From IMG/VR virus record IMGVR_UViG_2563366838_000005: a DNA stretch of 48,520 nucleotides, one strand, 5' to 3'. Positions within the stretch are counted from its first letter, which is position 1. Every line of letters begins with the position of its first letter. Under the pieces are notes generated by a model that worked only from the letters and a program-made list of their open reading frames with translations, ran no database searches and was not told the DNA's origin. The DNA is from a virus. Lineage: Duplodnaviria; Heunggongvirae; Uroviricota; Caudoviricetes. The translations under genes were made by a program, and so were the position numbers. Shown here piece by piece: positions 799 to 47,834 of the stretch.

Positions 799-1518
799 GT
801 GGCTGACAGAATTGAGATAAAGATGGATTTTTCTTCTCAGGATATTCAACGACAACTCCAGCGCCTTGAAGAACGCGAATTGCCGTTCGCAATGGCGCTT
901 GCGGCAACCAGAACGGCAAAGGCTTCTCAGGCTGCGATTAAGAATGAAATTAATCGGGTATTTGACAGGCCCACGCCGTGGATTCAGAACTCTACTTACG
1001 TTTTGGCCGCAAAGAAGAGTGATCCTACAGCCATTGTGTATGCTCGTGAATGGGGAGGAACGCCAGCCCCTGTAACGTTGACTCCGCAAATCGAAGGTGG
1101 CCAACGACAGTACAAACGCTCAGAAGGGGCGCTAAGGGCTGGTGGATATTTGCCTAACGGCTGGCAGATTGCTCCTGGTCCCGGCGCAAAGCTGGACAAA
1201 TACGGGAATATTTCGCGGGGGCAATTACAGCAGGTCTTATCTGGCCTAAGAGTTCAGCGAGATGCGCATCAAAATCGCCGTCAGGGCAAGCCTACGGAGT
1301 TTTTTGTTGTTCGACCTGGTACAAGTAACCCGCTTCAACCAGGCGTCTGGCAGCGCGTTGGGCGGCGTCCTACGTTGATCCTTACGTTTATCCAGCAACC
1401 TAACTATTCGCAGCGTCTTGATTGGCATGGCGTGGCGCTGCGTGCTGGTGAGGATGCGTTTGCTGATGAAGTCACAAAGGCTATTGATGACATTCTTTCC
1501 AAGACCTTCTCTCGTTAA
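799..1518 (+). CDS. Hypothetical protein (239 aa), tightly linked downstream of the ParB-methyltransferase fusion
   Basis: Long ORF starting 17 nt after the previous stop; no motif I recognise. Confidence 0.5.
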   Translation: MADRIEIKMDFSSQDIQRQLQRLEERELPFAMALAATRTAKASQAAIKNEINRVFDRPTPWIQNSTYVLAAKKSDPTAIVYAREWGGTPAPVTLTPQIEGGQRQYKRSEGALRAGGYLPNGWQIAPGPGAKLDKYGNISRGQLQQVLSGLRVQRDAHQNRRQGKPTEFFVVRPGTSNPLQPGVWQRVGRRPTLILTFIQQPNYSQRLDWHGVALRAGEDAFADEVTKAIDDILSKTFSR

Positions 1519-1692
1519 TCATCGTGTGGTTGATGGTGTTGTTATGCAGAGTGTATTCACTGTGTTCTGTAGCGTCGCTCGCTGGCTGTCTGTGGGGGAG
1601 CACGAGCATCGTTTCATCGTCCGGCAGAATTGGGTCCTTCTGGACAAAAGCGTTGGATGCGGGTCATTCGAACCCCGATGTTCGGCTAGCTA

Positions 1693-2075
1693 AACGTGAA
1701 AAAAGTTAGGTTAAAAGTTGCGGTAAAAGAAATTTACTCATCTCATTGAAAAATATCGGGAAAACGTGATTTTTTGCTGTATTTGTGCTGGTAAAAAGAA
1801 AGTAGAAAATTTTCTTTTAGATCATCAAGATACGCGCAGATCTTTAACCAATGTGATGTTGTTCTGATAAAAATCGTTATAAATCATGCAAATACATCCA
1901 ATCTTTTAACCAAAACACCATCTCAAGATCCTTTTTACTTATAAAAACTTAATAAAATCAGATGATTATGCTGGTTTGTGTGATTTTTTATGAGTAAAAA
2001 GATCGTCATTTTTCTCTTTTAGTATCAATAAGTTAAACAGTTTTCTTTAACCTGTTGTGTTATGGCGGTTAAAAA
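1693..2075. promoter_or_regulatory. AT-rich ORF-free region upstream of packaging genes; candidate packaging site and/or late promoter
   Basis: About 380 bp with no ORF; three copies of TCTT(T)TAACC (near 1842, 1902, 2045) and four GATC sites. Confidence 0.3.
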
Positions 2076-2666
2076 ATGGCTCTAAAAATCGAATATTTAC
2101 CAGTCGGTAAGCTGCTCAGATACGCCAAAAATTCACGGACTCATTCAGATGAGCAGGTTGAACAGTTGGTGAACAGTATCCGTGAGTTCGGTTTCACTAA
2201 TCCTGTGCTGATCGATGAAAAGAATGAACTGATTGCGGGGCATGGTCGGCTTGCAGCAGCCGAAATTCTGGAAATGGATAAAGTTCCGGCGATTCGGTTG
2301 AGTAACCTTTCTGAAAAACAGAAGAAGGCTTACAGGATTGCAGATAACAAGCTGGCCTTAAATGCTGGCTGGGATATGCAGCTTCTGGCCGAAGAAGTCA
2401 AAGAGTTAATGGATGATGATTTTGATATTGATCTGCTTGGGTTTAATGATGCAGAGCTTGACGAAATGTTAAGCGATGAACAGCCGCAGGAAGAAGACGA
2501 TAATTCTTCCCCTGTTGTTCAAATTAAGTACCTGGCTATTGATAAAGAACGTATTCCCGCGACGGATATGGAAATTGCATTGTTGCTGGATGTTTATCGT
2601 CAGTACCACGACGCGCATGAAACGCATGAGGGATTTGTTCAGTATCTTGCTAATGGTTGCAAGTAA
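2076..2666 (+). CDS. ParB-like nuclease domain protein
   Basis: KNSRTHS and GHGRLAAA motifs typical of ParB N-terminal domain; paralog of 47211..47834. Confidence 0.75.
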   Translation: MALKIEYLPVGKLLRYAKNSRTHSDEQVEQLVNSIREFGFTNPVLIDEKNELIAGHGRLAAAEILEMDKVPAIRLSNLSEKQKKAYRIADNKLALNAGWDMQLLAEEVKELMDDDFDIDLLGFNDAELDEMLSDEQPQEEDDNSSPVVQIKYLAIDKERIPATDMEIALLLDVYRQYHDAHETHEGFVQYLANGCK

Positions 2667-3217
2667 TGGCCATCGTCAGTAAGTCAGAGTTTGCTCGCCG
2701 GAAAGGTATTTCTCCGGCAATGGTTACGAAGCTCTGTCGTTCCGGTCGCATTCCAGTGCTGAAAAGCGGCAAGCTGGATTTTGATAAAGCCAGTGCGGCT
2801 TATGAAGCGAGCCGACAGGTTGGTCGTGAGGTATCTGCTGAAAATGGAAAAAGAGGGCATGGGATATCTTCGGAACAACCAGAGTTACCCGCTGATGATG
2901 CCGGATTAGCTGGTGGTACTTCCGGTGTTGCGGTGCAATTCAACAAGGCTAAGACCGCAGAAAAAATTTATCAGGCAAAGCTGAAACGCCTTGAATTTGA
3001 AGAAAAGGAAGGCTCTCTCATCGCTAAAGATGCGGTCAGGGATGATGCATTTCTGGCAGCTAATGAATTGCGTAGCCGCTTATTTAGTATTGCTCCAAGA
3101 GCAGCTCCCCGTTGTGAAGGCAAAACAGCCAGGGAGATCGAACGCATTATTGAAGACGAGATTAATTTTGCGCTTCAGGCGCTCCAGGAATCCCGATTTA
3201 TTAAGCAGGAAGAATAA
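2657..3217 (+). CDS. Putative terminase small subunit
   Basis: 186 aa ORF directly upstream of large terminase with N-terminal HTH-like segment; assigned by position. Confidence 0.5.
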   Translation: MQVMAIVSKSEFARRKGISPAMVTKLCRSGRIPVLKSGKLDFDKASAAYEASRQVGREVSAENGKRGHGISSEQPELPADDAGLAGGTSGVAVQFNKAKTAEKIYQAKLKRLEFEEKEGSLIAKDAVRDDAFLAANELRSRLFSIAPRAAPRCEGKTAREIERIIEDEINFALQALQESRFIKQEE

Positions 3218-3222
3218 ACCTC

Positions 3223-5079
3223 ATGGGCGAAACAGTATGGAGCACCGCTTTTTTCCGTGCGCTTCGCCCTAAATCACGGCTAACTGTTTCCGAATGGGCT
3301 GATAAGTATCGTCATGTAGCGCCGGGAACGTCTCCAGAGCCAGGGCCGTGGCGTACAAGCCGAGTGCCATATTTGCGTGAACCAATGGATGTTATTGGTG
3401 ACGCTGATACAGAAACAGTAGTGATGCAATGTAGCTCGCAAATTGGTAAATCCGAATTACAGCTAAATGTTATGGGTTACTTTGCAGATCAGGAGCCATC
3501 TCCTCAGTTGATGATTTATCCAACGGTAGAGGCGGCTGAGGCTTTTTCAAAAGAGCGTATTGATCCGACGTTCAAATATTCCCCTGGTTTGAAACACAAG
3601 CTGCATGAAGGGAAAGAGGGGCGCGGTGCAGCCAAAAAGTCCAGCACGACTATACGTATGAAGCATTACGCTGGTGGATATATAGCACTTGTTGGTGCTA
3701 ATTCCCCAGCAGGTCTTGCATCCAGGCCAATTCGAATACTGTTAGCTGATGAGATTGATCGTTACGGTGTGACGCAGGAGGGCGACCCACTAAAACTAGG
3801 TATTCAGCGTACTACCAACTTTCATAATCGTAAGAAAGTTTTTGTTTCTACTCCTGTTTTGGAGGAAACGAGCAAAATCCACAAGTGGTTTAAGCTCTCC
3901 GATCAGCGTTACTACCATGTTCCTTGCCCATGTTGTGGCACCATGCAGGTGATGAAATGGTCGCAAGTCAGATGGGATAAGAGCGATTCAGGTGAGGCGT
4001 TACCGGAAACGGCCAGATATGAGTGCTGTGAGTGCGGCGGGATTATGCGCGGATCTGGTAAACCAGACGTTGATTGGTTGGCGAAGGGGGTATGGATAGC
4101 TGAACATACTGGAGTTAAAGGTATTGTTGGTTTTCATATTAACAGTCTTTACTCCCCGTGGGTTGCATTGTCAGAGCTGGTTGAAGAATTTACGGAAGCA
4201 ACCAGAAACCGCGATAAAAATGGATTAATGGAGTTTATTAACCTTAAGCTGGGTGAGCCATGGAAAGAGGATGCTAAAGACGATATCGATCCTGAATACT
4301 TGTTGCAACGCAGAATAAGGTTTGAAGAGTTTTTACCAGATGATGTTTTATTGTTAAGTGCTGGTGTTGACGTACAGGACACGTATTTAGTTTGTGAATT
4401 GGTCGGTTGGGGAAAAGGTAAGGAGTCATGGGGGATAGAATATAAAATATTCCCAGGTGATCCCGCACAAGATGTTGTCTGGAAACAACTTGATGAATAC
4501 TTACTCCGTAGCTGGTCATTCCGTGACGGTCGAAAATTACAGATTTCTTCCGTTTGTATTGACTCTGGTGGGCATTTTACGACAGAGGTATATCGCTTTA
4601 CTAAGCCGAGAGAATCAAGGCGAATATACTCTATCAGGGGGCGTGGTGGGGTAGGTTTACCATTTATAGGAAAGCCAAGTAATAATAACCGTGTGGGTGC
4701 TATGTTGTTTAATTTGGGGGTTGATGATGGTAAAGGGACCATCATGGCAAGAATTAAACTACATGATCCTGGTCCTGGTTATATGCATTTCCCATTAGAT
4801 TCTGACAGAGGATATGATACCGAATACTTTAAAGGATTATTATCAGAGAAGAAAATATTTGAATATAAAAATGGGCAGACAAAAGAAAAGTGGGTGAAAG
4901 TCTACGAGCGTAACGAGCCTCTTGATTGCCGTAACTATGCAACTGCCGCGATGGAAATTCTGAACCCTAATTTTAACTGGCTTGCCGAACAGGAAATGCG
5001 AGGTAATGTGTATGTGCAGAACTCGTCAGGTATACGTAGAAGACGCCGTAGAGTTATAAGTAAAGGCGTAACCATATAG
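3223..5079 (+). CDS. Terminase large subunit, lambda gpA-like
   Basis: 618 aa; size and sequence character match the GpA terminase family; followed by gpW-like and portal genes. Confidence 0.85.
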   Translation: MGETVWSTAFFRALRPKSRLTVSEWADKYRHVAPGTSPEPGPWRTSRVPYLREPMDVIGDADTETVVMQCSSQIGKSELQLNVMGYFADQEPSPQLMIYPTVEAAEAFSKERIDPTFKYSPGLKHKLHEGKEGRGAAKKSSTTIRMKHYAGGYIALVGANSPAGLASRPIRILLADEIDRYGVTQEGDPLKLGIQRTTNFHNRKKVFVSTPVLEETSKIHKWFKLSDQRYYHVPCPCCGTMQVMKWSQVRWDKSDSGEALPETARYECCECGGIMRGSGKPDVDWLAKGVWIAEHTGVKGIVGFHINSLYSPWVALSELVEEFTEATRNRDKNGLMEFINLKLGEPWKEDAKDDIDPEYLLQRRIRFEEFLPDDVLLLSAGVDVQDTYLVCELVGWGKGKESWGIEYKIFPGDPAQDVVWKQLDEYLLRSWSFRDGRKLQISSVCIDSGGHFTTEVYRFTKPRESRRIYSIRGRGGVGLPFIGKPSNNNRVGAMLFNLGVDDGKGTIMARIKLHDPGPGYMHFPLDSDRGYDTEYFKGLLSEKKIFEYKNGQTKEKWVKVYERNEPLDCRNYATAAMEILNPNFNWLAEQEMRGNVYVQNSSGIRRRRRRVISKGVTI

Positions 5080-5090
5080 AGGAAATATAA

Positions 5091-5330
5091 ATGAACAATG
5101 AAGCATTTTCTCTGACTGAAGCCAGAGAGATGTTATCTGTCTGGCGGGAAGCATATCGCGCTATTGCTATTGGCGGTCAGTCATATAAATTTGGTACGCG
5201 GCAGTTAACTCGTGCGGATTTATCAGAAGTCAGAAAAGAGATGGATTACTGGCGTAATGAAGTAGAAAGATTATCAGCAGGTATACGCCGAGGCCCACGA
5301 ATTAAACGAGTGGTGATAAGAGATTTATGA
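5091..5330 (+). CDS. Head-tail joining protein, gpW-like
   Basis: 79 aa between terminase and portal; C-terminal RRGP motif as in lambda W. Confidence 0.6.
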   Translation: MNNEAFSLTEAREMLSVWREAYRAIAIGGQSYKFGTRQLTRADLSEVRKEMDYWRNEVERLSAGIRRGPRIKRVVIRDL

Positions 5331-7958: not shown

Positions 7959-7967
7959 GGTGAGTTT

Positions 7968-8351: not shown

Positions 8352-8371
8352 TATAAAGAGGTCGTATTTTT

Positions 8372-20495: not shown

Positions 20496-23300
20496 GTGAG
20501 TAAATTATTATTTACGATGACTGACGCCGGGCGTAAGGCGCTGGTTAATGCCAACAAGACTGGAACAAATAAAGTTGAGATCGTTTCTGTTGGTTTAGGT
20601 AGTAGATATTATGCCACATCAACCACACAAACAAAAATAACAGATGAAATAAAGCGACTTACCACAATAGGAGGCAAAGTCGTTTCTCCTGATACCATTC
20701 ATGTAACTGCGAAGGATGATAGTAAAGATGAGTATGTTGTCCATACAATAGGTTTGTATACAAATAAAGGAACATTGTTTGCTGTATACTCGCAAGAACA
20801 AGTAATAATAAATAAAGCATCTTCTACAATTGCTTTAATATCAAGTGATATAGCAATTAAAAATCTTGATACTAAAAACATTACATTTGGTGATGTTGAG
20901 TTTATTAACCCTCCCGCAACCGAAACTGTTGTTGGAGTAGCAAGATTTGCTAATGAACAAGAAATTGATGCAGGTACAGATGATTCCCTGGCTGTTTCAG
21001 CAAAGCGGCTTAAGCAAGCTATTGTAAAACATGAGCAATCACGTAATCATCCTGATGCAACTTTAACATCAAAAGGCATTGTTCAACTCAGTAATGCCAC
21101 CAATAGCACGTCTGAAAAGCTCGCAGCGACGCCTAAGGCTGTTAAGGCTGCATATGACCTGGCTAACGCTAAATACACCGCACAGGACGCTACCACGGCG
21201 CGAAAAGGGATTGTTCAGCTCAGTAGTGCCACTAACAGTACGTCTGAAACGCAGGCGGCAACGCCAAAAGCGGTCAAGGCAGCAAATGACAACGCAAATT
21301 CACGTCTGGCGAAAAATCAGAACGGTGCAGATATCCAGGATAAATCAGCTTTTCTGGACAATGTTGGCGTTACTAGCCTGACGTTTATGAAAAACAATGG
21401 CGAAATGCCGGTTGATGCCGACCTGAATACATTTGGTCCCGTTAAGGCTTATCTGGGGATCTGGTCTAAAGCTACCTCAACTAACGCAACACTGGAGAAA
21501 AATTTCCCGGAAGATAATGCTGTCGGTGTGCTTGAGGTTTTTGCTGCCGGCAATTTTGCAGGTACTCAACGCTTTACCACGGGAGACGGCAATGTATACA
21601 TGCGTAAACTCGCCAGTAAGTGGAATGGCACTGATGGTCCGTGGGGCGTATGGCGTCACACTCAATCTGCTACCCGCCCTTTGAGTACGACTATAGACCT
21701 GAATACGCTTGGAGCCGCCGAGCATCTTGGTTTATGGCGTAACAGTAGCTCGGCTATAGCTTCATATGAACGCAATTATCCAGAGGAAGGCGGCTTTGCT
21801 CAGGGGACGCTTGAGATCCTCGAAGGCGGGAATTATGGAAGAACGCAACGTTATACCACTCGCCGTGGAAATATGTATGTCCGCTGCCTTGCGGCAAGCT
21901 GGGATGCATCAAATCCGCAGTGGGAACCGTGGTTAAGAGTCGGTCATCAGTCAGAGAGTCGTTATTACGACGGGGATTTGAATGATGTGACTTCACCAGG
22001 TATTTACAGCGTTACAGGTAAAGCGACCAATGGTCCAATACTGGACGGAAACGGCGTGACAGTCCTCGGTATTCTGGAAGTGTTGAGGCGCTTTGATGGT
22101 GTTAACGTATGGCAGCGTTATACAACTGCCGGAACAGGTACAACCCTTAAAGGTCGCACGTTTGAGCGCGTTTTTACCGGCAGCTCATGGAGCGAATGGC
22201 GGGAAGTCTACACCTCGTATTCACTTCCCCTGAATCTGGGTATCGGCGGTGCAGTGGCAAAGCTCACCAGCCTGGACTGGCAGACCCACGACTTTGTGCC
22301 GGGCAGTCTGATAACCGTTCGGCTTGATAACATGACCAACATTCCCGACGGTATGGACTGGGGCGTCATTGATGGCAACCTGATAAACATCGCAGTTGGT
22401 CCGAGTGATGATTCCGGTACGGGGCGCTCAATGCATGTATGGCGCAGCACTGTAAGTAAAGCGAATTACCGCTTTTTTATGGTGCGTATTTCAGGAAATC
22501 CGGGAAGCCGCACGATCACGACAAGACGTGTGCCAATTATCGACGAAGCTCAGACATGGGCGGCGAAACAGACATTCAGCGGTGGTCTTTCTGGTGAACT
22601 GTCCGGCAATGCGGCTACAGCTACAAAGCTGAAAACGGCAAGGACAATTAACGGCGTAAAATTTGACGGCTCGGCAAATATTGAAGCATTTCCGCCAGGT
22701 GTTCCGTTGCCGTGGCCATCAGATACACCACCTGCGGGCTATGCAATTATGCAGGGGCAGACGTTTGATAAGGCAGCATATCCGAAACTGGCTATAGCCT
22801 ATCCTTCTGGTGTTATTCCAGATATGCGCGGCTGGACAATCAAGGGCAAACCCGCCAGTGGGCGTGCCGTATTGTCACAGGAACAGGACGGGATTAAATC
22901 GCATACTCACAGTGCCAGTGCGTCAAATACGGATTTGGGAACGAAAACAACCAGTTCGTTTGATTACGGCACGAAGACGGTCAGTACGTTTAATCATGGC
23001 ACAAAATCAACGAACAATACGGGCAATCATACGCACACTGTCGGTGGTGTTTATGGCGGCGACTCTGTCGGTGGAAAACAGCGTGTACAGGCTTCAGGAA
23101 ACAATCAGGTGTCCAGCACCGCCGGAGCGCACGCCCATACGGTGGATATTGGTCAGCATAACCACACTGTAGGTATTGGTGCCCATGCACACACTGTAGC
23201 ATTAGGTGCGCACGGACACACCATCACGGTAAATGCTACGGGTAATACCGAAAACACCGTCAAAAACATCGCATTTAACTATATTGTGAGGCTTGCATAA
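20496..23300 (+). CDS. Tail fibre protein with internal repeats and His-rich C-terminal tip
   Basis: 934 aa; tandem GIVQLSxATNSTSE..ATPKAVKAA repeats, three ~80 aa DLNT..G(I/L)W repeats, C-terminal HTH/HAH/HNH/HGH repeat series. Confidence 0.85.
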
Positions 23301-23875
23301 TGGCTTTCAGAATGAGTGCAGAAGCACAAACTATCCGCGTTTTCAATTTACTTGATGGAACCAATGAATTTATTGGCGAAAGTGACGCATATATCCCACC
23401 GTATACTGGTCTGCCTGCAAACAGTACAGATATTGCACCGCCTGATATTCCGGCGGGTTATGCAGCCGTTTTCAATGCAGATGAAATGAAATGGGAACTG
23501 ATGGAAGACCATCGCGGAAAGACCGTCTATGAAACGAAAACGGGAGCAGCCATTTATATTTCTGAACTTGGCGTATTACCTCCAGACGTGACAGCCATTT
23601 CCCCGGAGGGGGATTATCAGAAATGGAACGGCAATGCGTGGGTGAATGATGAGAATGCAGAGCGTGATGCGCTTGTCAGAGCGGCTGACTCTCAGAAGAA
23701 AGAGCTGATTGCATATGCAGGTGAAATTATTGCCACTCTGCAGGATGCTGTCGATTTAGATATGGCTACCGAGGAAGAAAAGTTAAGCCTGACACACTGG
23801 AAAAAATACCGTGTGCTACTGAATCGCGTTCAGCCGGAAAATGCCCCTGATATCGAATGGCCAGAATTAGTGTAA
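23300..23875 (+). CDS. Tail fibre assembly protein (Tfa-like)
   Basis: 191 aa immediately after the fibre gene, start overlapping its stop. Confidence 0.75.
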
Positions 23876-23896
23876 AGGCAAGATGATTTAAGGAAC

Positions 23897-23925
23897 AAAA
23901 CCGCCAATATGTTTATTAGCGGTTT
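23897..23925 (+). terminator. Candidate terminator at end of late operon
   Basis: 7 bp stem aaaccgc/gcggttt followed by T-run; long loop makes it weak. Confidence 0.3.
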
Positions 23926-24187
23926 TGCATTAAGTCAAAACAACCCTTTAACGGAGCTGGCCGCGCTGTTAAGGGATGATGTCACCTTATCTTTGAAGCC
24001 GGACAGCATATTGCTGAACGATGAGTTTACCGCAGGTTTCTGGCTGGGAATCATTGACTGGAGTTAGGCCAGTAGTATGATGCTCGCAAAACGAGATCCA
24101 ATTTAGATCCTTTTACTGGTGGATTATCGTTCGATCAGTGAGAGACTTCGTGCATGACCGAAAGTGTTGTGGTAGAGTTCTCTTAAA

Positions 24188-27800: not shown

Positions 27801-27913
27801 TATTTATATAATTATAGATTTATATAAAAAGTGCTTTACGGGTGGGAAAAAATTTCCTAAGGTTATACCCGAAACCGAGCGATACCCGCCCTGGTTAAAC
27901 CGGAGATAACCCG
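27801..27913 (+). promoter_or_regulatory. Conserved promoter/leader block, copy 1
   Basis: Near-identical to 37201-37320 and 45221-45336: TATAATTATAGATTTATATAA motif, TTTAC(A/G)-17 nt-TAAGGT, conserved leader ending GGAG-N8-ATG. Confidence 0.55.
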
Positions 27914-28294
27914 ATGAGCATGATTAAAATCCGCAAAAACGCTTTCCTTAAAATTCAAACTATCCTGGCTGGTTCTGTCGGCGTGATTTGCCGTTCTTCT
28001 TCAAGCCGCATCGATGACGGCTACGATGATGAGTATCGTGTGTCCTCGTGCGATGAGGCTTTAACCTGGCTGAAGGAGAATCAGGAACGTGCCCAGGTAT
28101 ATCTGGAAACAGAGAACGGCAATCAGATGCTGCGTATTAGCGGTCGTTATGGATTTGAAACTACATTCATGGCCTATTTTAATCAGGCTTACTTTGACAA
28201 GGAGCTGGCCTGGTACACTGACCGCATGAGCAAAAGCGAGCCAGCCCCGATTACACCGCCGAACAATAAACCATTTTTATTCCTCGTTAAGTAA
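27914..28294 (+). CDS. Hypothetical protein (126 aa) driven by conserved promoter copy 1
   Basis: ORF starts exactly at the end of the conserved block. Confidence 0.5.
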   Translation: MSMIKIRKNAFLKIQTILAGSVGVICRSSSSRIDDGYDDEYRVSSCDEALTWLKENQERAQVYLETENGNQMLRISGRYGFETTFMAYFNQAYFDKELAWYTDRMSKSEPAPITPPNNKPFLFLVK

Positions 28295-34800: not shown

Positions 34801-35295
34801 ATGACCTTTCAGGAGTGGGTTGACGAAAATGGAGGCCAAATTGGTGTTGCCAGAAAGTTTGGCTTTACGTCATCACTGATTGGTGCCTGGTATCGCTTCG
34901 AGAGATTCCCTCGTGCGGATAACCTGACGCTGCTGGTGGCGTATTCGGAAGGCCGGATTAACGTCCAGCAATGGGCGGCAGATTTTGCCGAACGTCAGCG
35001 CCAGCGTAGCGATGGCACATCGGTTCGGCAGAACAAGATCAAAGGGAATCTCCCTGTTAACTGCTTATCAAGGCTGAAAGCGGTTTTCTCTGAGTTGGGG
35101 ATGCCTGCGGAGCGTTGCAATCTACGCGGTCCGCGATTCATTGCTCGCTGGAAACACTCACACGTAACCGTTTCAGAGGTTCGTGATGCGATTACCGTGC
35201 TGGAGCTTAAGAATAAAGATTCCAGCGATATCGAGCTGATTCATAAGGAGATTAGCAACGCCCGGCGTTCAGCACTTGGGAGGCTTGAGGAATGA
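34801..35295 (+). CDS. Cro-like HTH regulator with C-terminal extension
   Basis: 164 aa; N-terminal Cro/YdaS-like HTH; divergent from cI. Confidence 0.5.
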   Translation: MTFQEWVDENGGQIGVARKFGFTSSLIGAWYRFERFPRADNLTLLVAYSEGRINVQQWAADFAERQRQRSDGTSVRQNKIKGNLPVNCLSRLKAVFSELGMPAERCNLRGPRFIARWKHSHVTVSEVRDAITVLELKNKDSSDIELIHKEISNARRSALGRLEE

Positions 35296-35807
35296 TGATT
35301 CTGGCCTTCTTTGGTGATAATCACCAGATTCAATCGAAGGTGGTGCACTACCTTGATCAAACGATTAAAGGATTTGCTATCGATCATATTGATAACGATA
35401 GCAAACATCTATCTGTAGATCAGAAAATTGGACGTGTGCAGCGACTGGTTGCCAGCCGTAACAGACGTGACACCGTAACAGTAGTCACGGGGATAACGGA
35501 GGTCATGGAGTACCAGATGTTGCTGCATCGTGGAGCTGTTTTCTGCGTTCTTCCTGGCATTCTGCCAGCAATTCTTGCTCGTGGTTTTGTCCCTATTGAT
35601 GAGTCGTTTTTATATGTAACCCCAAGCCGTTCCCTTCTGGATACGGAGGCGAAGCGTCGCATTTATATGATGCCGGACGAGGCATTTTCTGAATGTTACC
35701 GCCGTGAAATGAGGTTGGGTAAACGAGAAGTGTCTGTTGTTCGTGATGGCAGGTTTTTAAGAAGCCGCACGGTGAAAAGCACCAGAAATGACGGGGGCCA
35801 TCAATGA
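35292..35807 (+). CDS. Hypothetical protein
   Basis: 171 aa ORF, translationally coupled. Confidence 0.45.
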   Translation: MMILAFFGDNHQIQSKVVHYLDQTIKGFAIDHIDNDSKHLSVDQKIGRVQRLVASRNRRDTVTVVTGITEVMEYQMLLHRGAVFCVLPGILPAILARGFVPIDESFLYVTPSRSLLDTEAKRRIYMMPDEAFSECYRREMRLGKREVSVVRDGRFLRSRTVKSTRNDGGHQ

Positions 35808-36037
35808 GTAGTTATGTTCGCGGTGCTGCGATGCATTGCCAGAATCCCCAATTCTGGCGCTTTCTGACCAGTAAAACAGGGAAGAACGTTTCAAACAGTT
35901 CTGAGGCCTCTGTGATTCTGCGTGAGTTTTGCGGGATCTCATCCCGTAAAGAGCTGGCAAAGAACTACGCGGCCAGAAGCATGTATGTCCAGTTAATCAA
36001 CGAGTTCAACCTCTTTATCAATGGTAAGGGGCGCTGA
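35804..36037 (+). CDS. Hypothetical protein
   Basis: 77 aa ORF, overlapping start/stop. Confidence 0.4.
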   Translation: MSSYVRGAAMHCQNPQFWRFLTSKTGKNVSNSSEASVILREFCGISSRKELAKNYAARSMYVQLINEFNLFINGKGR

Positions 36038-36441
36038 TGAACGGACGTACACCAACGAAGAAAGAGAAACTTTATATACAAGCGGTGCTCACTCACGTGG
36101 GTTGCATAGCTTGCATTATTGATGGCCGTGAAATTGAGAATCCAGAGCTGTGGACGGAGCTACATCACGATCCTGATTACGGCAGCGTTGATGAGAATTG
36201 CCACTTCCATAGCTTTGGGTTGTGCGCACCACATCATCGCGGTGTTGTGCCTGGTGGTGGGCGCGTGCCTCCGCATATTGCCGTTCGTCACCCTCCCCTG
36301 AGTAATTGTGCTCGCTTTGTTGAGCGTTATGGCACCGATGAATTTTTGTGTGCGCAGACGTGGGAGCTGTTGCCGCAGTCAGTTAAAGACGAAATTGGGT
36401 TTGATCTTAGTCTTGGTGAAGTACCAGGGGATACCAAATGA
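36037..36441 (+). CDS. Cys/His-rich putative nuclease (HNH-like)
   Basis: 134 aa with CIACIIDG, ELHHDPD, CHFHSFGLCAPHH motifs. Confidence 0.4.
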   Translation: MNGRTPTKKEKLYIQAVLTHVGCIACIIDGREIENPELWTELHHDPDYGSVDENCHFHSFGLCAPHHRGVVPGGGRVPPHIAVRHPPLSNCARFVERYGTDEFLCAQTWELLPQSVKDEIGFDLSLGEVPGDTK

Positions 36442-36770
36442 GATATACCGGCTTTCGCAAACCAGCGACCAGGAAAAGCAAATACGGCAATAAAAAAACT
36501 GTTGTCGATGATATCTCTTTTGATAGCAAAAAAGAGGCTGATTACTACTGCGAACTGAAGCTACTGAGAAAAGCTGGCCGCGTTGTGACGTTTCTTATGC
36601 AGGTGCCTTTTCATCTGCCAGGTGGTGTCGTTTATAAACTTGATTTCATGGTGTTTTATGACGATGGGACGATTGATTGTGTCGACACTAAAGGTGTGCG
36701 AACAGACGTCTACATCATGAAGAAAAAGCAGGTAGAGGCGCTTTATCCCGTCACGATACGGGAGATCTGA
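36438..36770 (+). CDS. DUF1064-like protein, putative nuclease/resolvase
   Basis: 110 aa; YGNKKTVVDDISFDSKKEADYY..YKLDFMVF..VDTKG pattern recalled for DUF1064. Confidence 0.5.
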   Translation: MRYTGFRKPATRKSKYGNKKTVVDDISFDSKKEADYYCELKLLRKAGRVVTFLMQVPFHLPGGVVYKLDFMVFYDDGTIDCVDTKGVRTDVYIMKKKQVEALYPVTIREI

Positions 36771-38419: not shown

Positions 38420-38444
38420 TATATAGAATTATATATTTATATAA

Positions 38445-42012: not shown

Positions 42013-42013
42013 T

Positions 42014-42289: not shown

Positions 42290-42434
42290 GTATTGTTTTT
42301 TTATTGATCGATCAACCACATTTTGAAGGTTTTTTTATGAAGAAACCTTGTTTTAGGTGGTAACTGGGTGTAGTGTTTCATTTAACGTAGTAAAACTGCG
42401 TTAAGCGATTACCGCGTAATTTGTTGCTTTATGA

Positions 42435-42465
42435 AGCCCTGCCTTTTCGGCGGGGCTTTTTTTTA
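42435..42465 (+). terminator. Rho-independent terminator immediately upstream of holin gene
   Basis: 9 bp stem agccctgcc/ggcggggct with one G-U pair, loop ttttc, then T8. Confidence 0.55.
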
Positions 42466-42477
42466 ACGAGGATTTCA

Positions 42478-42873
42478 ATGTCAGCAGAACCAATTTCCGG
42501 TACGGCCGTTGCTGCTGGTGGCCTGATGGGTGCCAGCGTTTTTGGTATTGCAACTGGTATTGATTACGGCGTTGTATTCGGGGCATTTGCTGGCGCTGTT
42601 TTCTATGTTGCTACAGCGGTGAATATTAGCCGTCTCAAGCTGATTGGCTATTTCTTTACATCGTTCATTGTTGGAGTGATTGGAGCGCCGTTAGTTGGCT
42701 CATTTCTTGCCAAATGGACCAGCTACAACGATCGTCCTCTGGATGCGCTTGGTGCGGTTATTGTGGCTGCATTGACCATTAAAATCCTCACGTTCGTAAA
42801 CAGCCAGGATCTCGGTAGCATCTTTGGAATGCTTTCCCGCTTACGTGGAGGGGGTTCAAATGGTAAGCAGTGA
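42478..42873 (+). CDS. Putative holin (multi-TM membrane protein)
   Basis: 131 aa from ATG 42478 with GAGGA SD; several hydrophobic helices; first gene of lysis cassette. Confidence 0.55.
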   Translation: MSAEPISGTAVAAGGLMGASVFGIATGIDYGVVFGAFAGAVFYVATAVNISRLKLIGYFFTSFIVGVIGAPLVGSFLAKWTSYNDRPLDALGAVIVAALTIKILTFVNSQDLGSIFGMLSRLRGGGSNGKQ

Positions 42874-43156
42874 CCCGTCAGCACTGATTAATGCGGTGCT
42901 TTGCACAGTAATAGTAATGGCGCTGATGCTTTATCGACGGAAAGACTCCAGGCATCGTCCATTTGTTTCCTTTCTGGCTTATATCTACGTCATTGTATAC
43001 GCCAATGTTCCCTTCCGTTATGTGTTCGGTCTTTATCAAGAATCCCACTGGCTGGTGGTTATTGGAAATCTGATTATCTGCATCGTTGTTCTGTATTTCA
43101 GGGGCAATCTGGCGCGGATAGTTGACGCATTAGGGTTTAATCATGACCAAAGATGA
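42860..43156 (+). CDS. Lysis-associated membrane protein (second holin or antiholin candidate)
   Basis: 98 aa from ATG 42860; three hydrophobic segments; overlaps endolysin start. Confidence 0.45.
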   Translation: MVSSDPSALINAVLCTVIVMALMLYRRKDSRHRPFVSFLAYIYVIVYANVPFRYVFGLYQESHWLVVIGNLIICIVVLYFRGNLARIVDALGFNHDQR

Positions 43157-43685
43157 GATTTTTAACAGCATTCTTGGAAAAGAGGGCGGCTATGTGGATC
43201 ACCCTGACGACAAGGGAGGCCCAACAAAGTGGGGCATTACTCAGAATACTGCCCGTGCTCACGGATACCGTGGCGATATGCGAGATCTGACGCGAGAACA
43301 GGCTCTGATGATTCTTGAAGGTGATTATTGGTATGGGCCTCGTTTTGACCAGGTGGCGCAATTTTCCCCTGATATTGCGGCTGAGATGTGCGATACGGGC
43401 GTCAACATGGGGCCGACTGTGGCTACGAAGATGCTTCAACGTTGGCTGAATGTTTTCAACCGTGGCGGGAAGTTGTATCCAGATATGGATGTGGATGGGC
43501 GAATCGGCCCGCGCACCATTGCGGCATTACGTGCTTATCTTGGGAATCGGGGAAAAGACGGCGAACGGGTAATGCTGACGGCCCTGAACTGTACGCAGGG
43601 CGACCGTTATCTGGACCTGGCGGAGAAACGCGAAGCAAATGAGTCGTTTGTCTATGGCTGGATGAAAGAGCGAGTGGTGGTATGA
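43143..43685 (+). CDS. Endolysin, GH108-like N-terminal domain with peptidoglycan-binding C-terminal domain
   Basis: 180 aa; N-terminal EGGYVDHPDDKGGPTKWGIT motif characteristic of GH108 lysozymes. Confidence 0.75.
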   Translation: MTKDEIFNSILGKEGGYVDHPDDKGGPTKWGITQNTARAHGYRGDMRDLTREQALMILEGDYWYGPRFDQVAQFSPDIAAEMCDTGVNMGPTVATKMLQRWLNVFNRGGKLYPDMDVDGRIGPRTIAALRAYLGNRGKDGERVMLTALNCTQGDRYLDLAEKREANESFVYGWMKERVVV

Positions 43686-43960
43686 CTGGTTTGAAAGCCG
43701 TTTTGTCATTTATCGGCACCGTTATATTGGTTGCATTCGGTGCGTTTGGTTTTGGTCGTATGAAGGGGCGAGAAAAGGCCGAAGATGAAGCTGAAAAGCA
43801 GCGCATTAATGAGAATGCAGCCGCCGTAAAAGCCACTGCGGAGCGGCGTATAGAAGTGACAAAAGAGGTGGGCAATGTACAGCAGAGTGTTAACCATATG
43901 GCTGATGACGATGTTGATCGCGAGCTGCGGGAGTCGTGGAAGCGTCCCGGTGGTGGTTGA
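43682..43960 (+). CDS. i-spanin (Rz-like)
   Basis: 92 aa; N-terminal TM helix, charged coiled region; start overlaps endolysin stop. Confidence 0.6.
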   Translation: MTGLKAVLSFIGTVILVAFGAFGFGRMKGREKAEDEAEKQRINENAAAVKATAERRIEVTKEVGNVQQSVNHMADDDVDRELRESWKRPGGG

Positions 43961-44084
43961 TACCGCCTGTGATTGGGTAAAGCCCATCTACCTGACTGAT
44001 CACGATATCGATGTTATGGACCGCCAGACAAAGAAAGATATTCTGGCTCATAACAGGGCATGGGAAATCAACTGCCCCAAGTAA
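43875..44084 (+). CDS. o-spanin (Rz1-like lipoprotein)
   Basis: 69 aa; lipobox LIASC; starts in an alternate frame inside the i-spanin gene. Confidence 0.6.
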   Translation: MYSRVLTIWLMTMLIASCGSRGSVPVVVDTACDWVKPIYLTDHDIDVMDRQTKKDILAHNRAWEINCPK

Positions 44085-44253
44085 TATATATTTCTATAAT
44101 TATATAAATATATAGTTACAACATTCTATGCGCTTTTCTCATGGGCGCACGCATCAACCATGTTTGTCTGATATGCCGCCGCGCCCAAAAATCCTGAATT
44201 TATTGGCTGGGATTTTCGTGCGCGGCGCCACACCAGACAAACAGATCAAATAT

Positions 44254-44329
44254 GGCCCCTTAGCTCAGTGGTTAGAGCAGGCGACTCATAATCGCACGGT
44301 CATCGGTTCAAATCCGGTAGGGGCCACCA
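44254..44329 (+). tRNA. tRNA with CAU anticodon, most like tRNA-Ile2 (lysidine type); could be scored as tRNA-Met
   Basis: 76 nt cloverleaf with 7 bp acceptor stem, D-arm GCTC/GAGC, anticodon loop CTCATAA, T-loop TTCAAAT, encoded CCA; resembles E. coli ileX as recalled. Confidence 0.8.
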
Positions 44330-44637
44330 ATTCACTCTCACACATAAAGATAAGCGCGGTGGAGTTACTTCCTTCGTGCTCATCTTTATGCGTGCCTGGT
44401 GCGCATTTCGGGCGAACGTGGGGCTAAGTTACAGGCAGGGCCTGTTATCCGCAAAGGGGTAAAAGCTGGAGCGGCACGGAACTGTAGCCGTGTTACCAAA
44501 ACAGCGTTGTCGGGCGATATCCGGCACACAACAGGCAAGGGCATTAATCAGTCTGGTTAGTGCCCTTTTCGTTGCGTCTGCTGTAGAGCTGGCCAGCGTT
44601 ATGACTGCCGGAGATAAGCGCCGGAGGCACAACTAAC

Positions 44638-45225
44638 ATGGAGGCAATTGCATTGTTTAATCTGATTTATGCAGATCCCCCCTGGGAATACAAAGATAAG
44701 TGTAAGGATGGGAATCGTGGAGCTGGTTTTAAGTATCCAACGATGAAAGCTGAGGATATTGCTCGTATTCCTGTCTGGCAGCTTGCTAATCCTGAATCGT
44801 GTTTGTTGGCCATGTGGTGGGTTCCGACTCAGCCAGAAGAAGCGTTGCTGGTGGTGAAAGCATGGGGATTCAGGCTTATGACCATGAAGGGCTTCACATG
44901 GAACAAATGTGGTAGCCGACAACCAGATAAGCTGGTGATGGGGATGGGGCATATGACTCGTGCAAACAGTGAAGATTGCTTGTTTGCGGTAAAAGGCAAA
45001 TTGCCGACCCGCCTTGATGCGGGGATCATTCAGTCGTTTACATCGCCTCGTCTGGAGCATTCTCGGAAGCCTGATGTGGTTCGTGACAAGCTGGTAAGGC
45101 TGTTAGGTGATGTTCCTCGTATTGAGCTGTTTGCTCGCGGTGATTTACCTGATGGTTGGCATGGCTGGGGCAACCAGTGCAATGGAAGTATCCAGTTGCA
45201 TGATGCTCTCTGGCAAGTGGTATAG
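44638..45225 (+). CDS. DNA adenine methyltransferase, MT-A70-like
   Basis: 195 aa; IYADPPWEY catalytic motif near N-terminus. Confidence 0.7.
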   Translation: MEAIALFNLIYADPPWEYKDKCKDGNRGAGFKYPTMKAEDIARIPVWQLANPESCLLAMWWVPTQPEEALLVVKAWGFRLMTMKGFTWNKCGSRQPDKLVMGMGHMTRANSEDCLFAVKGKLPTRLDAGIIQSFTSPRLEHSRKPDVVRDKLVRLLGDVPRIELFARGDLPDGWHGWGNQCNGSIQLHDALWQVV

Positions 45226-45336
45226 AATTATATAATTATAGATTTATATAAAAGTGCTTTACAGGTGGGAAAAAATTTCCTATGGTTATACCCGAAACCG
45301 AGCGATACCCGCCCTGGTTAAACCGGAGATAACCCG
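45221..45336 (+). promoter_or_regulatory. Conserved promoter/leader block, copy 3
   Basis: Near-identical to copies 1 and 2 (TTTACA-17 nt-TATGGT variant), ends at ATG 45337. Confidence 0.55.
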
Positions 45337-45606
45337 ATGAAAGTACAAGACCGTGAAGTAGTAAAAAACCTCCTGCAATACCTGACCTCAAAAAACCTGA
45401 CTGGCAGCGTTGAGTTCCGTGAAGCGTTAAAACATTTCAACGTCACTACGGTTTATCGTTGGGAAAACAAACATTCTGAAAGACCGTATGTGGTGGATGT
45501 TTTTGCGCCTGATATTGAGTGCGGTTTTGAGCGTCATTCGTTCAAGGAGAAACATTCTGCTGATTTTTTTTGTGAGGTTGTATGTGCGGCAGGAGATGAT
45601 GAGTGA
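45337..45606 (+). CDS. Hypothetical protein (89 aa) driven by conserved promoter copy 3
   Basis: ORF begins at end of conserved block. Confidence 0.5.
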   Translation: MKVQDREVVKNLLQYLTSKNLTGSVEFREALKHFNVTTVYRWENKHSERPYVVDVFAPDIECGFERHSFKEKHSADFFCEVVCAAGDDE

Positions 45607-45803
45607 TGCGTATTTCCTTCAAACGTGCGACTGAGCAGCAACGCAAAGAGTTCCTGGCTGATGATGTAGCGGCCGTTTATGACCTCATGAAAGAGGTTGT
45701 GGAATCAGGGAACTACACGGCGGCAAAGATGCTTAAACTGCAATTCTTGCTGGGCGACCTGAAATACAAATCCGAAGTTGTCGCCGGACGACGCGAGCAT
45801 TAA
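45603..45803 (+). CDS. Hypothetical protein
   Basis: 66 aa ORF overlapping the previous stop, followed by terminator. Confidence 0.4.
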   Translation: MMRISFKRATEQQRKEFLADDVAAVYDLMKEVVESGNYTAAKMLKLQFLLGDLKYKSEVVAGRREH

Positions 45804-45826
45804 ACCGTAACGATAACGAACAACGA

Positions 45827-45853
45827 GCCTCGGCAATTGCCGGGGCTTTTTTA
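45827..45853 (+). terminator. Rho-independent terminator
   Basis: 8 bp stem gcctcggc/gccggggc with one G-U pair, loop aatt, then T6. Confidence 0.6.
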
Positions 45854-45877
45854 CATCCAGACAAAGGAGAACATGGG

Positions 45878-46177
45878 ATGCCTTCGACAAGCACCAAAAA
45901 AGAAATGGCGGTTAGTGATGTGCTTTACGCGCTTTCGACTATATGTGACGGAGCAATGATGAGGATGAAAGTCCTCCATGAAGCATACGGAAAAAGTCAC
46001 GATGAGGCAGCTAAAGAGTGCCTGAATGAGATTGTGGACTTCATTGATAGCCATCGTTCAGTTATATCGCGTCAACCGACAGCGTCGTCCATCACGATTA
46101 GCGCACCGGTTATCAATATATCAGTAACTGCGGCATGTAAATCAGCAGCGGAAGATGATCGTGCTTATGCCGAGTGA
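45878..46177 (+). CDS. Hypothetical protein
   Basis: 99 aa ORF. Confidence 0.4.
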   Translation: MPSTSTKKEMAVSDVLYALSTICDGAMMRMKVLHEAYGKSHDEAAKECLNEIVDFIDSHRSVISRQPTASSITISAPVINISVTAACKSAAEDDRAYAE

Positions 46178-46367
46178 TTTGTTCTGGTTTCCGCTTCCAA
46201 TAAGAGATTTGTTGGTATTTCTAGCTGGCGCTTACGTCTGGAGAAAAGCGAAAGACACCTCGTTATCTTTGAGGTTTGTCTTAGCTATATCGGTAGGAAC
46301 CGCGCTGGGGACGGCGTATCTCTTGACATTACTGGAGATATTCATTGAAGAATGGATAGTTTCATGA
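46155..46367 (+). CDS. Small membrane protein
   Basis: 70 aa with two hydrophobic helices. Confidence 0.4.
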   Translation: MIVLMPSDLFWFPLPIRDLLVFLAGAYVWRKAKDTSLSLRFVLAISVGTALGTAYLLTLLEIFIEEWIVS

Positions 46368-46516
46368 ATGGTGTTGGCATTTTTCTGATGGTTGTGGCCG
46401 TGTGTTTTTGTATCTCGCTGGTGGTTATCGCTGGTGTCCTGTGGCGCATCTTAGTGGCGCAGAGGGCTTTTCGGCTTAAGCGGGAGCAAATGCGCCTTGA
46501 TTTATATCGAAAGTAA
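46364..46516 (+). CDS. Candidate small membrane peptide (50 aa)
   Basis: ATG 46364 overlapping previous stop; hydrophobic N-terminus and basic C-terminus; terminator follows. Confidence 0.3.
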   Translation: MNGVGIFLMVVAVCFCISLVVIAGVLWRILVAQRAFRLKREQMRLDLYRK

Positions 46517-46524
46517 CTCTTACA

Positions 46525-46554
46525 GCCTCGCGGTGTCGCGGGGCTTTTTATTTT
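46525..46554 (+). terminator. Rho-independent terminator
   Basis: 8 bp stem gcctcgcg/cgcggggc, loop gtgt, then T-run. Confidence 0.6.
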
Positions 46555-46565
46555 CAGGTGATGTT

Positions 46566-46976
46566 ATGGAAAAGAAAGAAGATAAACCGATTGCCATTGG
46601 TGCAGAGTCTGTTCCGTTTAAGTTTGAATTATCCCAACTGGTAACAATGCGTATCAGTGAAGAGTGGGGAGAAGTTCAAGCCCGTGCTCAGTATGCAAAT
46701 GGCGAAAACCAGTATCTGATTCACTATCAGGCGGCTGATGGCCGTGCTACCACAGAGTGGTTCGGTGAGTCGATGCTGATTGCGATGGAGGATAAACGTC
46801 ATCCTGGCTGCCCTGTTTTTGCCTGTATTGATTTGCCAGAAGGCGCGGTACTTGAAGACGACAAAGAAGAATGGTCGCCTGATGGCGAACTTGTCATTAC
46901 CGGAATCGTGGATGGTAAGCCGGAATATTCCCGTATTGAGGTAAATAACGGCCACATCTGTTTGATCCCTGCGTAA
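46566..46976 (+). CDS. Hypothetical protein
   Basis: 136 aa from ATG 46566 with AGGTG SD. Confidence 0.45.
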   Translation: MEKKEDKPIAIGAESVPFKFELSQLVTMRISEEWGEVQARAQYANGENQYLIHYQAADGRATTEWFGESMLIAMEDKRHPGCPVFACIDLPEGAVLEDDKEEWSPDGELVITGIVDGKPEYSRIEVNNGHICLIPA

Positions 46977-47210
46977 CGCATTACAGCAGCTCTTGTGCTA
47001 ATCAGGGGCTGCGATAATGCGCAAACCAAAGCTGCCTCATTAACTCCTGCTCGCTGTGGAGTTAATGCTGGTGGCTTTTTTATTACTGGAAGGTGGGCGA
47101 CCGCCGTCAGTTGCGACCTGACGACAGTCATTCATACCCACAGGGTGCCGTGGATACAAACCGAGGCCCACTTGCTTGCACAAGCGAGGGGATTTTAGCG
47201 GATAAACGGC

Positions 47211-47834
47211 ATGACAAAACATCTTAATGTGGTTTCTTTACCACTTTCTGTGTTGATTGGTTATGAAAAGAACGCTCGCACACACTCCGTGGAGCAGGTA
47301 GATCAGATTGTTGCCAGCATACAGGAGTACGGATGGACTAATCCGATCCTGATAGACGAGAACAACGTTGTAATTGCTGGTCATGGTCGAATTGCTGCGG
47401 CCACTCAGTTGGGGATGGATGATGTTCCCTGCATTGTTCTGGCTGGGCTAACGGAGAATCAGAAGAAGGCATATCGTCTGGCCGACAACCGTATTCCGCT
47501 GAATGCTGGTTGGGATGAAGAGTTGTTAAGCGCGGAGCTTGCAGATCTTGCGGCCGATGATTTTGCTCTGGACTCAATTGGTTTTACTCAGCGCGAACTG
47601 GATAACTTATTGAGTGCGGCAGTCTACGATGACACAGAGGGTATGGATATCCCATTTGAGAAGGATGAGGCCAAATCAGGCGTAAAAGTTCAGTACCTGT
47701 CATTTGGAGGTCATAAAATCCCGGCAACGGATGAGGAAGCGGATCGTTTTGACTGCGCGGTGTCTCGTTATGTTGATGATAATGGCAGCTATATCGGATT
47801 TGTATCCGCATTGCTGGCTGGGGAGGTGTGCTGA
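47211..47834 (+). CDS. ParB-like nuclease domain protein (paralog of 2076..2666)
   Basis: KNARTHS and GHGRIAAA motifs; stop overlaps the start of the next gene. Confidence 0.75.
   Translation: MTKHLNVVSLPLSVLIGYEKNARTHSVEQVDQIVASIQEYGWTNPILIDENNVVIAGHGRIAAATQLGMDDVPCIVLAGLTENQKKAYRLADNRIPLNAGWDEELLSAELADLAADDFALDSIGFTQRELDNLLSAAVYDDTEGMDIPFEKDEAKSGVKVQYLSFGGHKIPATDEEADRFDCAVSRYVDDNGSYIGFVSALLAGEVC

Follow-up and report, generated by a model that had tools for sequence, protein, structure and literature searches.

A tandem ParB-fold methyltransferase fusion and its acidic ParB-like partner beside phage terminase genes

IMG/VR virus record IMGVR_UViG_2563366838_000005, a stretch of 48,520 nucleotides (nt) from a member of the Caudoviricetes that is called the window here, encodes a ParB-methyltransferase fusion protein whose gene runs across the junction of the two ends. 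The fusion consists of three domains, a ParB-CTPase fold, a degenerate ParB/Srx fold and a class I S-adenosylmethionine (SAM)-dependent methyltransferase. Judged by gene neighbourhoods, the fusion and a stand-alone ParB-like gene immediately upstream of it, named ParB1 here, form a mobile two-gene cassette, which keeps its place in front of the packaging genes irrespective of the type of packaging system. The architecture has already been catalogued (PHROG 5475; PMC12704722), and the family is functionally uncharacterised. As far as we found, the present analysis adds the tandem ParB/Srx architecture, an acidic ParB-like protein as obligate partner, a synteny that is independent of the terminase family, a set of residues invariant across phyla, and the finding that the fusion belongs to no standard DNA-methylase family.

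The window is a circular contig of 48,425 bp, since its last 95 nt (48426..48520) match its first 95 nt (1..95) exactly. This terminal redundancy marks a circular assembly and holds no extra sequence, and features that cross the ends were therefore joined only after dropping these 95 nt. If position 48520 is simply followed by position 1, a stretch of 1469 nt results in which the frame is lost and stop codons are met; after removal of the overlap, the open reading frame (ORF) of the fusion (47834..48425 plus 1..782) comprises 1374 nt and encodes 457 amino acids (aa) followed by a stop. A first-pass annotation, made from the letters of the window, had proposed that the gene starting at 47834 continues across the circular junction and encodes about 458 aa, which agrees with the 457 aa found here once the overlap is dropped. 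The same ORF is unbroken in Yersinia phage vB_YpM_39 (46775..48148) and in Escherichia coli phage vB_EcoM-613R2. Unbroken copies also occur in 72 complete genomes of E. coli, at 77 places of which 76 are plasmid-borne; those plasmids listed are about 48 kb in size. One E. coli plasmid counterpart annotated by PGAP carries myovirus genes (sheath, tube, baseplate, portal, ClpP-type protease and capsid) and also encodes RepA, ParA and a RelE/ParE toxin-antitoxin pair; because both sets occur on one plasmid, the element in the window is classified, from its gene content, as a myovirus phage-plasmid. Membership in the pSLy3 phage-plasmid group was considered and dropped, pSLy3 having a size of 114 kb. 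The 48,488-bp plasmid NZ_CP009073.1 of E. coli ATCC 25922 is the same phage-plasmid and carries the fusion at 35140-36510 with 99.3% identity.

Domain architecture of the fusion protein

Domain 1 (aa 1-95; 47834..48118, plus strand) is a nucleotide-binding domain that has the ParB-CTPase fold. Searched as a single sequence, the fusion matches Pfam ParB_N over aa 7-68 with 24.3 bits, just under the cut-off of 26.3, and most of its homologues carry a precomputed PF02195 match. A family profile built from 32 homologues matches the Spo0J structure 6sdk at 1e-8 over aa 6-81, along with several other ParB/Noc structures in the PDB. The three pocket boxes are present as Y16-N-P-R19 (Box I), A51-G-H-Q-R55 (Box II) and DExRFNQxHN with D80, N85, H88 and N89 (Box III). 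For comparisons across the family, 80 IMG/VR loci were clustered at 70% identity into 30 lineages; in the representatives of these lineages, which come from several phyla and go down to 30% identity, YNPR, AGHQR and D80/N85/H88/N89 are invariant. Because the pocket is intact and invariant, its conservation argues that nucleotide binding by the fusion is functional. The GHQR motif, on which the ParB-like N-terminus had initially been recognised, lies at aa 52, and the Spo0J match bears out that assignment.

Domain 2 (aa 96-200; 48119..48425, with the last 8 nt at window positions 1..8, plus strand) is a second, degenerate ParB/Srx fold, which had been overlooked when the protein was first described as a ParB N-terminus joined to a methyltransferase C-terminus; both of those parts are present. 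Instead of the GHQRT of domain 1 it has IHCAQ, so that the phosphate-binding arginine of GxxR is lost, and it probably caps or partners domain 1. Neither a helix-turn-helix (HTH) nor a C-terminal dimerisation or clamp-closing domain was found in the fusion, in which aa 96-200 are occupied by the ParB/Srx fold and not by an HTH.

The remainder of the protein (aa 201-457 and the stop; 9..782, plus strand) comprises a linker and the methyltransferase domain. Methyltransf_23 (PF13489) matches aa 231-398 at 31.9 bits (Pfam cut-off, 27), which places the domain among the class I SAM-dependent methyltransferases. Motif I reads DFGSGQG, E266 comes after strand 2, and strand 4 is followed by D305-x-V-x-N-S310, with D305, V307 and S310 invariant even in members that are only 30-36% identical. 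Across the 30 lineages, the invariant positions of the methyltransferase are motif I, D300, D305/V307/S310, D364, G375 and Q380, and the linker motif YG.F.Y...Q..AQ..R is likewise invariant. The IDFGSGQG motif and the YDYVICD strand pointed out in the first-pass annotation are located at aa 242 and 299.

That annotation had also noted the lack of the DPPY or NPPY motif expected of a DNA amino-methyltransferase, and this held throughout the family: [DNS]PP[YFW] occurs neither in the fusion nor in the 32 aligned homologues or 80 further viral homologues (112 homologues in all). PC[QH] is absent from the fusion and from the 32 aligned homologues, in which C304 is not conserved, and the fusion has no Pfam or fold match to the C5-cytosine methyltransferases. 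The protein thus falls outside the DNA amino-methyltransferase families PF01555, PF02384 and PF05063 as well as the C5-cytosine family. Placement in a standard N6/N4 family with a diverged motif, the outcome that would have overturned the initial description, did not occur. In PDB profile searches the C-terminal part of the family profile matches UbiG (1.4e-6) and UbiG-like O-methyltransferases, with weak matches to Hen1, and the best structural matches of the domain include the tRNA methyltransferases Trm9 and METTL6, with small-molecule enzymes scoring at least as well. On these profile and fold matches, we assign the domain to the small-molecule/RNA type and to no DNA-methylase type. The fusion has a net charge of +11.6, with +9 in the methyltransferase domain (family median, +6), and this domain is rich in invariant arginine and aromatic residues; its basic, Arg/aromatic-rich character therefore fits a polyanionic nucleotide or nucleic-acid substrate.

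At the family level, the fusion matches PHROG 5475 from end to end (E = 5.9e-265; residues 1-457 against positions 1-457 of a 458-position profile), a family labelled 'unknown function'. NCBIfam holds no family specific to the fusion, and neither does PADLOC, in which a ParB-methylase model matches the ParB part only.

A two-gene cassette ahead of the terminase genes

ParB1 (47211..47834, plus strand) is a stand-alone ParB-like protein of 207 aa with a net charge of -20 (phrog_620 at 4e-74; ParB_N, 23.9 bits). Its stop overlaps the start of the fusion by 1 nt, and the two genes are predicted to be translationally coupled. A second stand-alone ParB-like protein, ParB2 (2076..2666, plus strand; 196 aa; net charge, -19; phrog_620 at 4.6e-75; ParB_N, 33.7 bits), is 48% identical to ParB1 and lies on the other side of the fusion, and Pfam and PHROG thus support the early observation of ParB-like genes on both flanks. 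Both proteins resemble the N-terminal ~150 aa of ParB-DNA-methylase fusions (ParB1: phrog_498 at 1.7e-50 and PADLOC MTase_II at 3e-37; ParB2: MTase_II at 2e-40), and Pfam showed no family of DNA-binding domains in ParB1. The stand-alone ParB-like proteins have isoelectric points of 4.3-4.5 and net charges of about -20, concentrated in aa 96-150 (family median, -15), and the contrast between an acidic stand-alone ParB and a basic fusion holds across the family.

Searches for the fusion yielded a large and uniform family. A word-indexed search gave 774 relatives, and among the 120 listed nearly all have about 460 aa and the same two Pfam domains. An exhaustive search of 1.84 billion cluster representatives gave 240 matches at E <= 1e-30 (about 240 clusters at 50% identity), and among the 150 of these listed nearly all have 450-490 aa and align over their full length. 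Prophage copies were found in Gammaproteobacteria, Alphaproteobacteria, Bacillota, Bacteroidota, Planctomycetota, Chloroflexota, Chlorobiota and Hydrogenedentes, covering at least 8 phyla. Isolated phages that carry it are, among others, Bacteroides phage BS-TP3, at 35% identity, and a phage of Brochothrix, at 27%; the fusion is present in only 7 of 50,697 phage records. Conservation over at least 8 phyla argues for a universal substrate.

The two neighbours of the fusion recur as well. Of the 27 lineages with enough upstream DNA, 26 have a stand-alone ParB-like ORF as the next gene upstream, in the same orientation (68 of 69 loci), and it usually overlaps the fusion start; this partner is also found in 28 of 33 prophage loci and in Bacteroides phage BS-TP3. 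On the other side, the first large downstream ORF is a terminase large subunit by Pfam in 24 of 28 lineages, and in one more by BLAST. These terminases belong to the GpA family in 8 lineages, to the Terminase_6/Terminase_3 clan in 13, and to TerL_ATPase/TerL_nuclease in 3. We conclude that the cassette travels as a unit because the ParB-like partner and the downstream terminase recur across three unrelated terminase families.

The fusion was not found on conjugative plasmids; all 63 plasmid matches are non-mobilizable, nearly all of them phage-plasmids of about 47-50 kb, and on these matches an anti-restriction context in a conjugative leading region was rejected. Individual loci have other neighbours: in a Bradyrhizobium prophage (L004, 9054-13165) and a metagenomic phage (L009, 7381-8973), whose contexts are unrelated, the fusion lies near GGACT/AIG2-like genes, and in the metagenomic phage an Amidoligase_2 gene is also nearby.

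In the window, the terminase small subunit TerS is encoded at 2657..3217 (plus strand; phrog_57 at 7.4e-42) and the large subunit TerL at 3223..5079 (plus strand), in keeping with the initial view that the ParB, fusion and 239-aa genes lie just upstream of terminase. The TerL ORF is 100% and 99.8% identical to ORFs of Yersinia and E. coli phages, respectively, the latter annotated as terminase large subunit; in the PGAP annotation, its counterpart on a plasmid is called a phage terminase large subunit family protein, and the homologue in a related IMG/VR locus (L018) matches GpA_ATPase at 9.2e-78 and GpA_nuclease at 1.5e-86, making TerL GpA-type by homology. ParB2 most probably belongs with this terminase operon, as its first gene, leaving ParB1 as the only conserved partner of the fusion, because Vibrio phage X29 (L094, 1-3300) keeps a ParB2-type gene at its left genome end in the order ParB-like, TerS, TerL, with a TerL 63% identical to that of the window and no fusion. 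A dedicated role of ParB2 with the fusion was judged unlikely on the same ground.

The 239-aa ORF between the fusion and ParB2 (799..1518, plus strand) had been called unrecognisable. It has no Pfam or NCBIfam match, yet it belongs to PHROG 1924 (2.8e-97), which carries a 'minor tail protein' label, and it is the last gene before the genome end; its homologues are the last gene at the right genome end of Pseudomonas phages F10, MD8 and JBD68, some of them annotated 'minor tail protein'. We rejected it as a part of the cassette, as it adjoins the fusion only in close relatives and is missing in most other lineages.

A candidate physical genome terminus lies between the cassette and the terminase operon. 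The records of Yersinia phages vB_YpM_39 and vB_YpM_41 end at window position 1661 and start at 1662, and that of vB_YpM_44 ends at 1673 and starts at 1674. These breaks suggest that positions 1662-1673 (GGTCATTCGAAC) are a 12-nt cohesive end site (cos), with which the GpA-homologous TerL is compatible. In the virion DNA, ParB1, the fusion and the 239-aa ORF would then lie at the right end, with ParB2, TerS and TerL at the left. Between the candidate cos and ParB2 lies an AT-rich stretch (1709..2075) with five copies of GGTTAAARR, candidate binding sites for the terminase small subunit (cosB-like) or for a ParB; these 5 matches, all within 367 bp, are the only ones in the window, in which 2.15 are expected. 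The cassette follows the lysis genes and precedes the head genes on the same strand, a position that resembles that of late accessory genes in lambdoid phages, and no promoter-like or strong terminator-like site was found between ParB1, the fusion, the 239-aa ORF and the terminase operon.

Possible substrates and relation to known systems

The closest published description is a survey of ParB-CTPase-fold proteins that counts Methyltransf_23 as one of the domains showing the strongest enrichment in phage fusions (Kaljevic et al., PNAS 2025; PMC12704722). These fusions (PF02195 and PF13489) share their two Pfam domains and their phage and prophage enrichment with the present family, and we equate them with PHROG 5475. 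The survey words them as having 'predicted DNA methyltransferase activities', as prophage-enriched and as 'perhaps in anti-defense', and one bacterial and one gut-phage ParB-Methyltransf_23 example were purified (PMC12704722). Its protein table includes the phage Methyltransferase23 fusion among exactly 11 arginine-to-alanine pocket mutants, a number equal to that of the 11 nucleoside triphosphate (NTP) binders, and its text assigns ATP binding to SAM-methyltransferase fusions (PMC12704722). By elimination within these parts of the survey, the tested phage fusion would bind ATP; it is likened to the present family by domain architecture only. The survey describes the fusions at the domain level, and in its main text, where 'tandem' occurs nowhere, we found no mention of a second ParB/Srx fold; nor did we find, in the available part of the source, any mention of an acidic ParB partner, of terminase synteny or of lacking DNA-methylase motifs (PMC12704722). 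A literature search combining ParB-like, SAM-dependent methyltransferase, terminase and prophage found nothing.

Fusions of ParB to N6/N4 DNA methylases (PF02195 and PF01555; phrog_498; MTase_II PDLC03229) likewise combine a ParB fold and a methyltransferase on mobile elements, M.EcoGIX and M.BceJIV being examples. Their catalytic domain has a DPPY-type motif IV, whereas the present fusion has a Methyltransf_23 fold without this motif and two tandem ParB folds, and was found only on phage-plasmids, phages and prophages. The ParB/Spo0J/Noc CTP clamps share the N-terminal fold and the three pocket boxes with domain 1 of the fusion, which differs from them in lacking an HTH, a C-terminal dimerisation domain and a ParA-binding motif and in having GHQR, not GERR, in Box II. 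Sulfiredoxin, the serine kinase SerK and SbnI are neither fused to a methyltransferase nor tandem and have 4-12% sequence identity to the present fold. A functional precedent comes from phage stand-alone ParBs without a DNA-binding domain, which activate a cognate thymine dioxygenase, specifically on double-stranded DNA, in clusters of the 5mYOX176/ParB176 type that often co-occur with terminases (O'Toole et al., PNAS 2026; PMC13229309). Such a cluster is like the present pair, by description, in having a stand-alone ParB beside an enzyme and near terminase; however, 5mYOX176 is an Fe/2OG dioxygenase, is not fused to ParB and has a proven DNA substrate, while a DNA substrate of the present fusion is suggested by indirect arguments.

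We favour, with a probability of roughly 0.4, late and nucleotide-gated (ATP/NTP) methylation of replicated phage DNA before packaging, with ParB1 as an activator or regulator. NTP binding is here drawn from the literature on the same architecture, and the late timing, the DNA target and the role of ParB1 are what we infer. ParB1 would be made late, together with the fusion, and would activate or regulate it; the fusion would be an NTP-gated, probably ATP-gated, methyltransferase and would methylate replicated phage DNA, or a nucleotide moiety contained in it, ahead of packaging, by a chemistry that would be neither exocyclic-amino (DPPY) nor C5 (PCQ). The module might thus serve DNA modification and defence evasion, in analogy to ParB-N6-adenine methylases and ParB-activated thymine dioxygenases. 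We read it in this way because ParB1 is homologous to DNA-methylase modules and there is a precedent for ParB activators (PMC13229309); because the terminase-proximal, late position is shared with a bona fide MT-A70 DNA methylase; and because of the basic, Arg/aromatic-rich catalytic domain and the need for a universal substrate.

Several points weigh against this reading. Its main weaknesses are that no sequence or structural neighbour of the fusion is a DNA methyltransferase, the closest being small-molecule, tRNA and other non-DNA enzymes, and that the fusion has no recognisable target-recognition domain, HTH or C-terminal clamp-closing domain. ParB1 is so acidic that DNA binding of its own is unlikely, and the phage already has a DNA adenine methyltransferase of the canonical MT-A70 kind, which carries the motif DPPW (44638..45225, plus strand; PF05063 at 3.4e-23), 2.6 kb upstream of the cassette. 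The terminase-side position may be a common slot for accessory genes, and the ParB-like/TerS adjacency that occurs without a fusion makes the synteny signal partly non-specific. Finally, the published binding data are linked to the present family by the domain pair only, and according to the protein table the bacterial ParB-Methyltransf_23 protein is not among the binders (PMC12704722).

Among the rivals, the strongest, although we think it doubtful, is a methyltransferase for nucleotides or small molecules, in which the tandem ParB/Srx module holds an NTP or a nucleotide-derived metabolite and is enzymatic or substrate-binding as in sulfiredoxin, SerK and SbnI, with phosphotransfer perhaps preceding methylation. 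Such an enzyme could change the nucleotide pool or neutralise a nucleotide-based host immune signal. It would fit the missing DNA-recognition domain, the absolute invariance of H53 and Q54 and the ATP binding reported for the same architecture in the text of the survey (PMC12704722), and a universal metabolite would account for conservation over 8 phyla. Yet no other metabolic gene is conserved, the sole conserved partner being a ParB-like homologue of DNA-methylase modules, and the tight, late position next to terminase is unusual for metabolic or anti-signalling genes; we also know of no immune signal that is inactivated by methylation. It is rather unlikely, in our view, that phage DNA is methylated by a chemistry outside the known dedicated families or, alternatively, that a nucleotide held in the ParB pocket is methylated. 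On DNA, the methyl group could then go to the phosphate backbone, an oxygen or a ring nitrogen instead of N6-A, N4-C or C5-C, and a methyltransferase of the small-molecule type would be both delivered and gated by an acidic ParB activator together with a tandem ParB fold that binds ATP. Less likely again is a methyltransferase for RNA or protein (the target being tRNA or rRNA, or a protein of the phage or its host, for instance a component of the capsid or of packaging) with the ParB folds as an NTP-dependent switch. Trm9 and METTL6 among the best structural matches, the weak Hen1 matches, a basic domain that suits RNA, and a phage tRNA gene about 3 kb upstream (44254-44329, plus strand; CAT anticodon; tRNA-Met according to ARAGORN and tRNA-Ile in the PGAP annotation of its homologue in one plasmid record) all point in this direction, and a target among the virion proteins would go well with the neighbouring structural and packaging genes. 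However, small-molecule enzymes match the structure at least as well, the tRNA is not kept with the cassette in other lineages, and a host-specific protein target is hard to square with 30-60% identity over 8 phyla and three terminase families.

The first-pass annotation had suggested a packaging-linked modification module. The link to terminase is upheld by the synteny in 24-25 of 28 lineages; its specific version, in which methyl marks on cos/pac or on DNA ends control terminase cutting, we regard as improbable. Dam methylation does control pac cleavage in phage P1, and here the distance between the cassette, which the terminase operon flanks, and the candidate cos is about 880 bp, with ParB paralogues on either side of this site, the five-copy GGTTAAARR cluster between it and ParB2, and very strong terminase synteny. 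Against this, the cassette accompanies GpA, Terminase_6/3 and TerL_ATPase terminases, which have no common packaging site, and some of which are T4-like and presumably package by headful; such a breadth of terminase types therefore speaks against modification at a specific packaging site and for a shared late timing or position. Moreover, the close relative Vibrio phage X29 packages its DNA without the fusion, and most sequenced phages lack the cassette. We consider it very improbable that the ParB-like genes encode centromere-binding partition proteins of the phage-plasmid, with an incidental methyltransferase, and rejected this role. The element does replicate as a plasmid (RepA, ParA), and some records label the genes 'chromosome (plasmid) partitioning protein ParB', but in the partition-ParB model TIGR00180 the fusion, ParB1 and ParB2 reach 16, 29.8 and 40.1 bits against a cut-off of 58.45, so that none of the three is a canonical partition ParB. 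The HTH domain is missing, a motif scan did not find the ParA-interaction motif [LFI]G[KR]G[LFI], the plasmid ParA is encoded elsewhere with its own small downstream gene, and the cassette also occurs in integrated prophages and in phages that are not plasmids.

ParB-fold proteins are general NTP-binding modules that are reused beyond chromosome segregation, and almost no phage fusion among them has a known function. The present family is a good entry point, with its rigid conservation over at least 8 phyla, its partner gene, its fixed place on the packaging side and a catalytic domain outside the DNA-methylase families. If it modifies DNA, it would represent either a new methylation chemistry or a new way to bring a methyltransferase to its DNA target; otherwise, the family would be an uncommon case of a ParB fold with enzymatic action on a nucleotide, RNA or protein. 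Should a chemistry outside the dedicated families, or else methylation of a nucleotide in the ParB pocket, be at work, the cassette would combine a new enzymatic use of the ParB fold with a new phage modification or counter-defence chemistry in at least 8 bacterial phyla. Experimental access is easy, since E. coli ATCC 25922, a widely used reference strain, carries the phage-plasmid and inducible isolates of the phage are available.

Other features of the phage-plasmid

Upstream of ParB1, two strong hairpins that resemble intrinsic terminators on the plus strand (45825-45848 and 46524-46545) have stems of 9-10 bp with 7 G-C pairs and T tails. Their location among small accessory genes suggests antitermination read-through in late transcription. 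A near-identical direct repeat of about 115 bp occurs at 27803-27920 and 45221-45340 and holds, besides a ribosome-binding site and an ATG, a promoter-like site (TTTACA-17-TATGGT). From this arrangement, the repeat appears to be a leader that drives one small gene starting at 27914 and a different one starting at 45337.

The tail-fibre region (21283-24026) is the main stretch of the window without a BLAST match to plasmid NZ_CP070025.1, which has opposed tail-fibre-assembly genes and a recombinase at the corresponding place; host-range cassettes therefore vary among elements that are otherwise about 99% identical.

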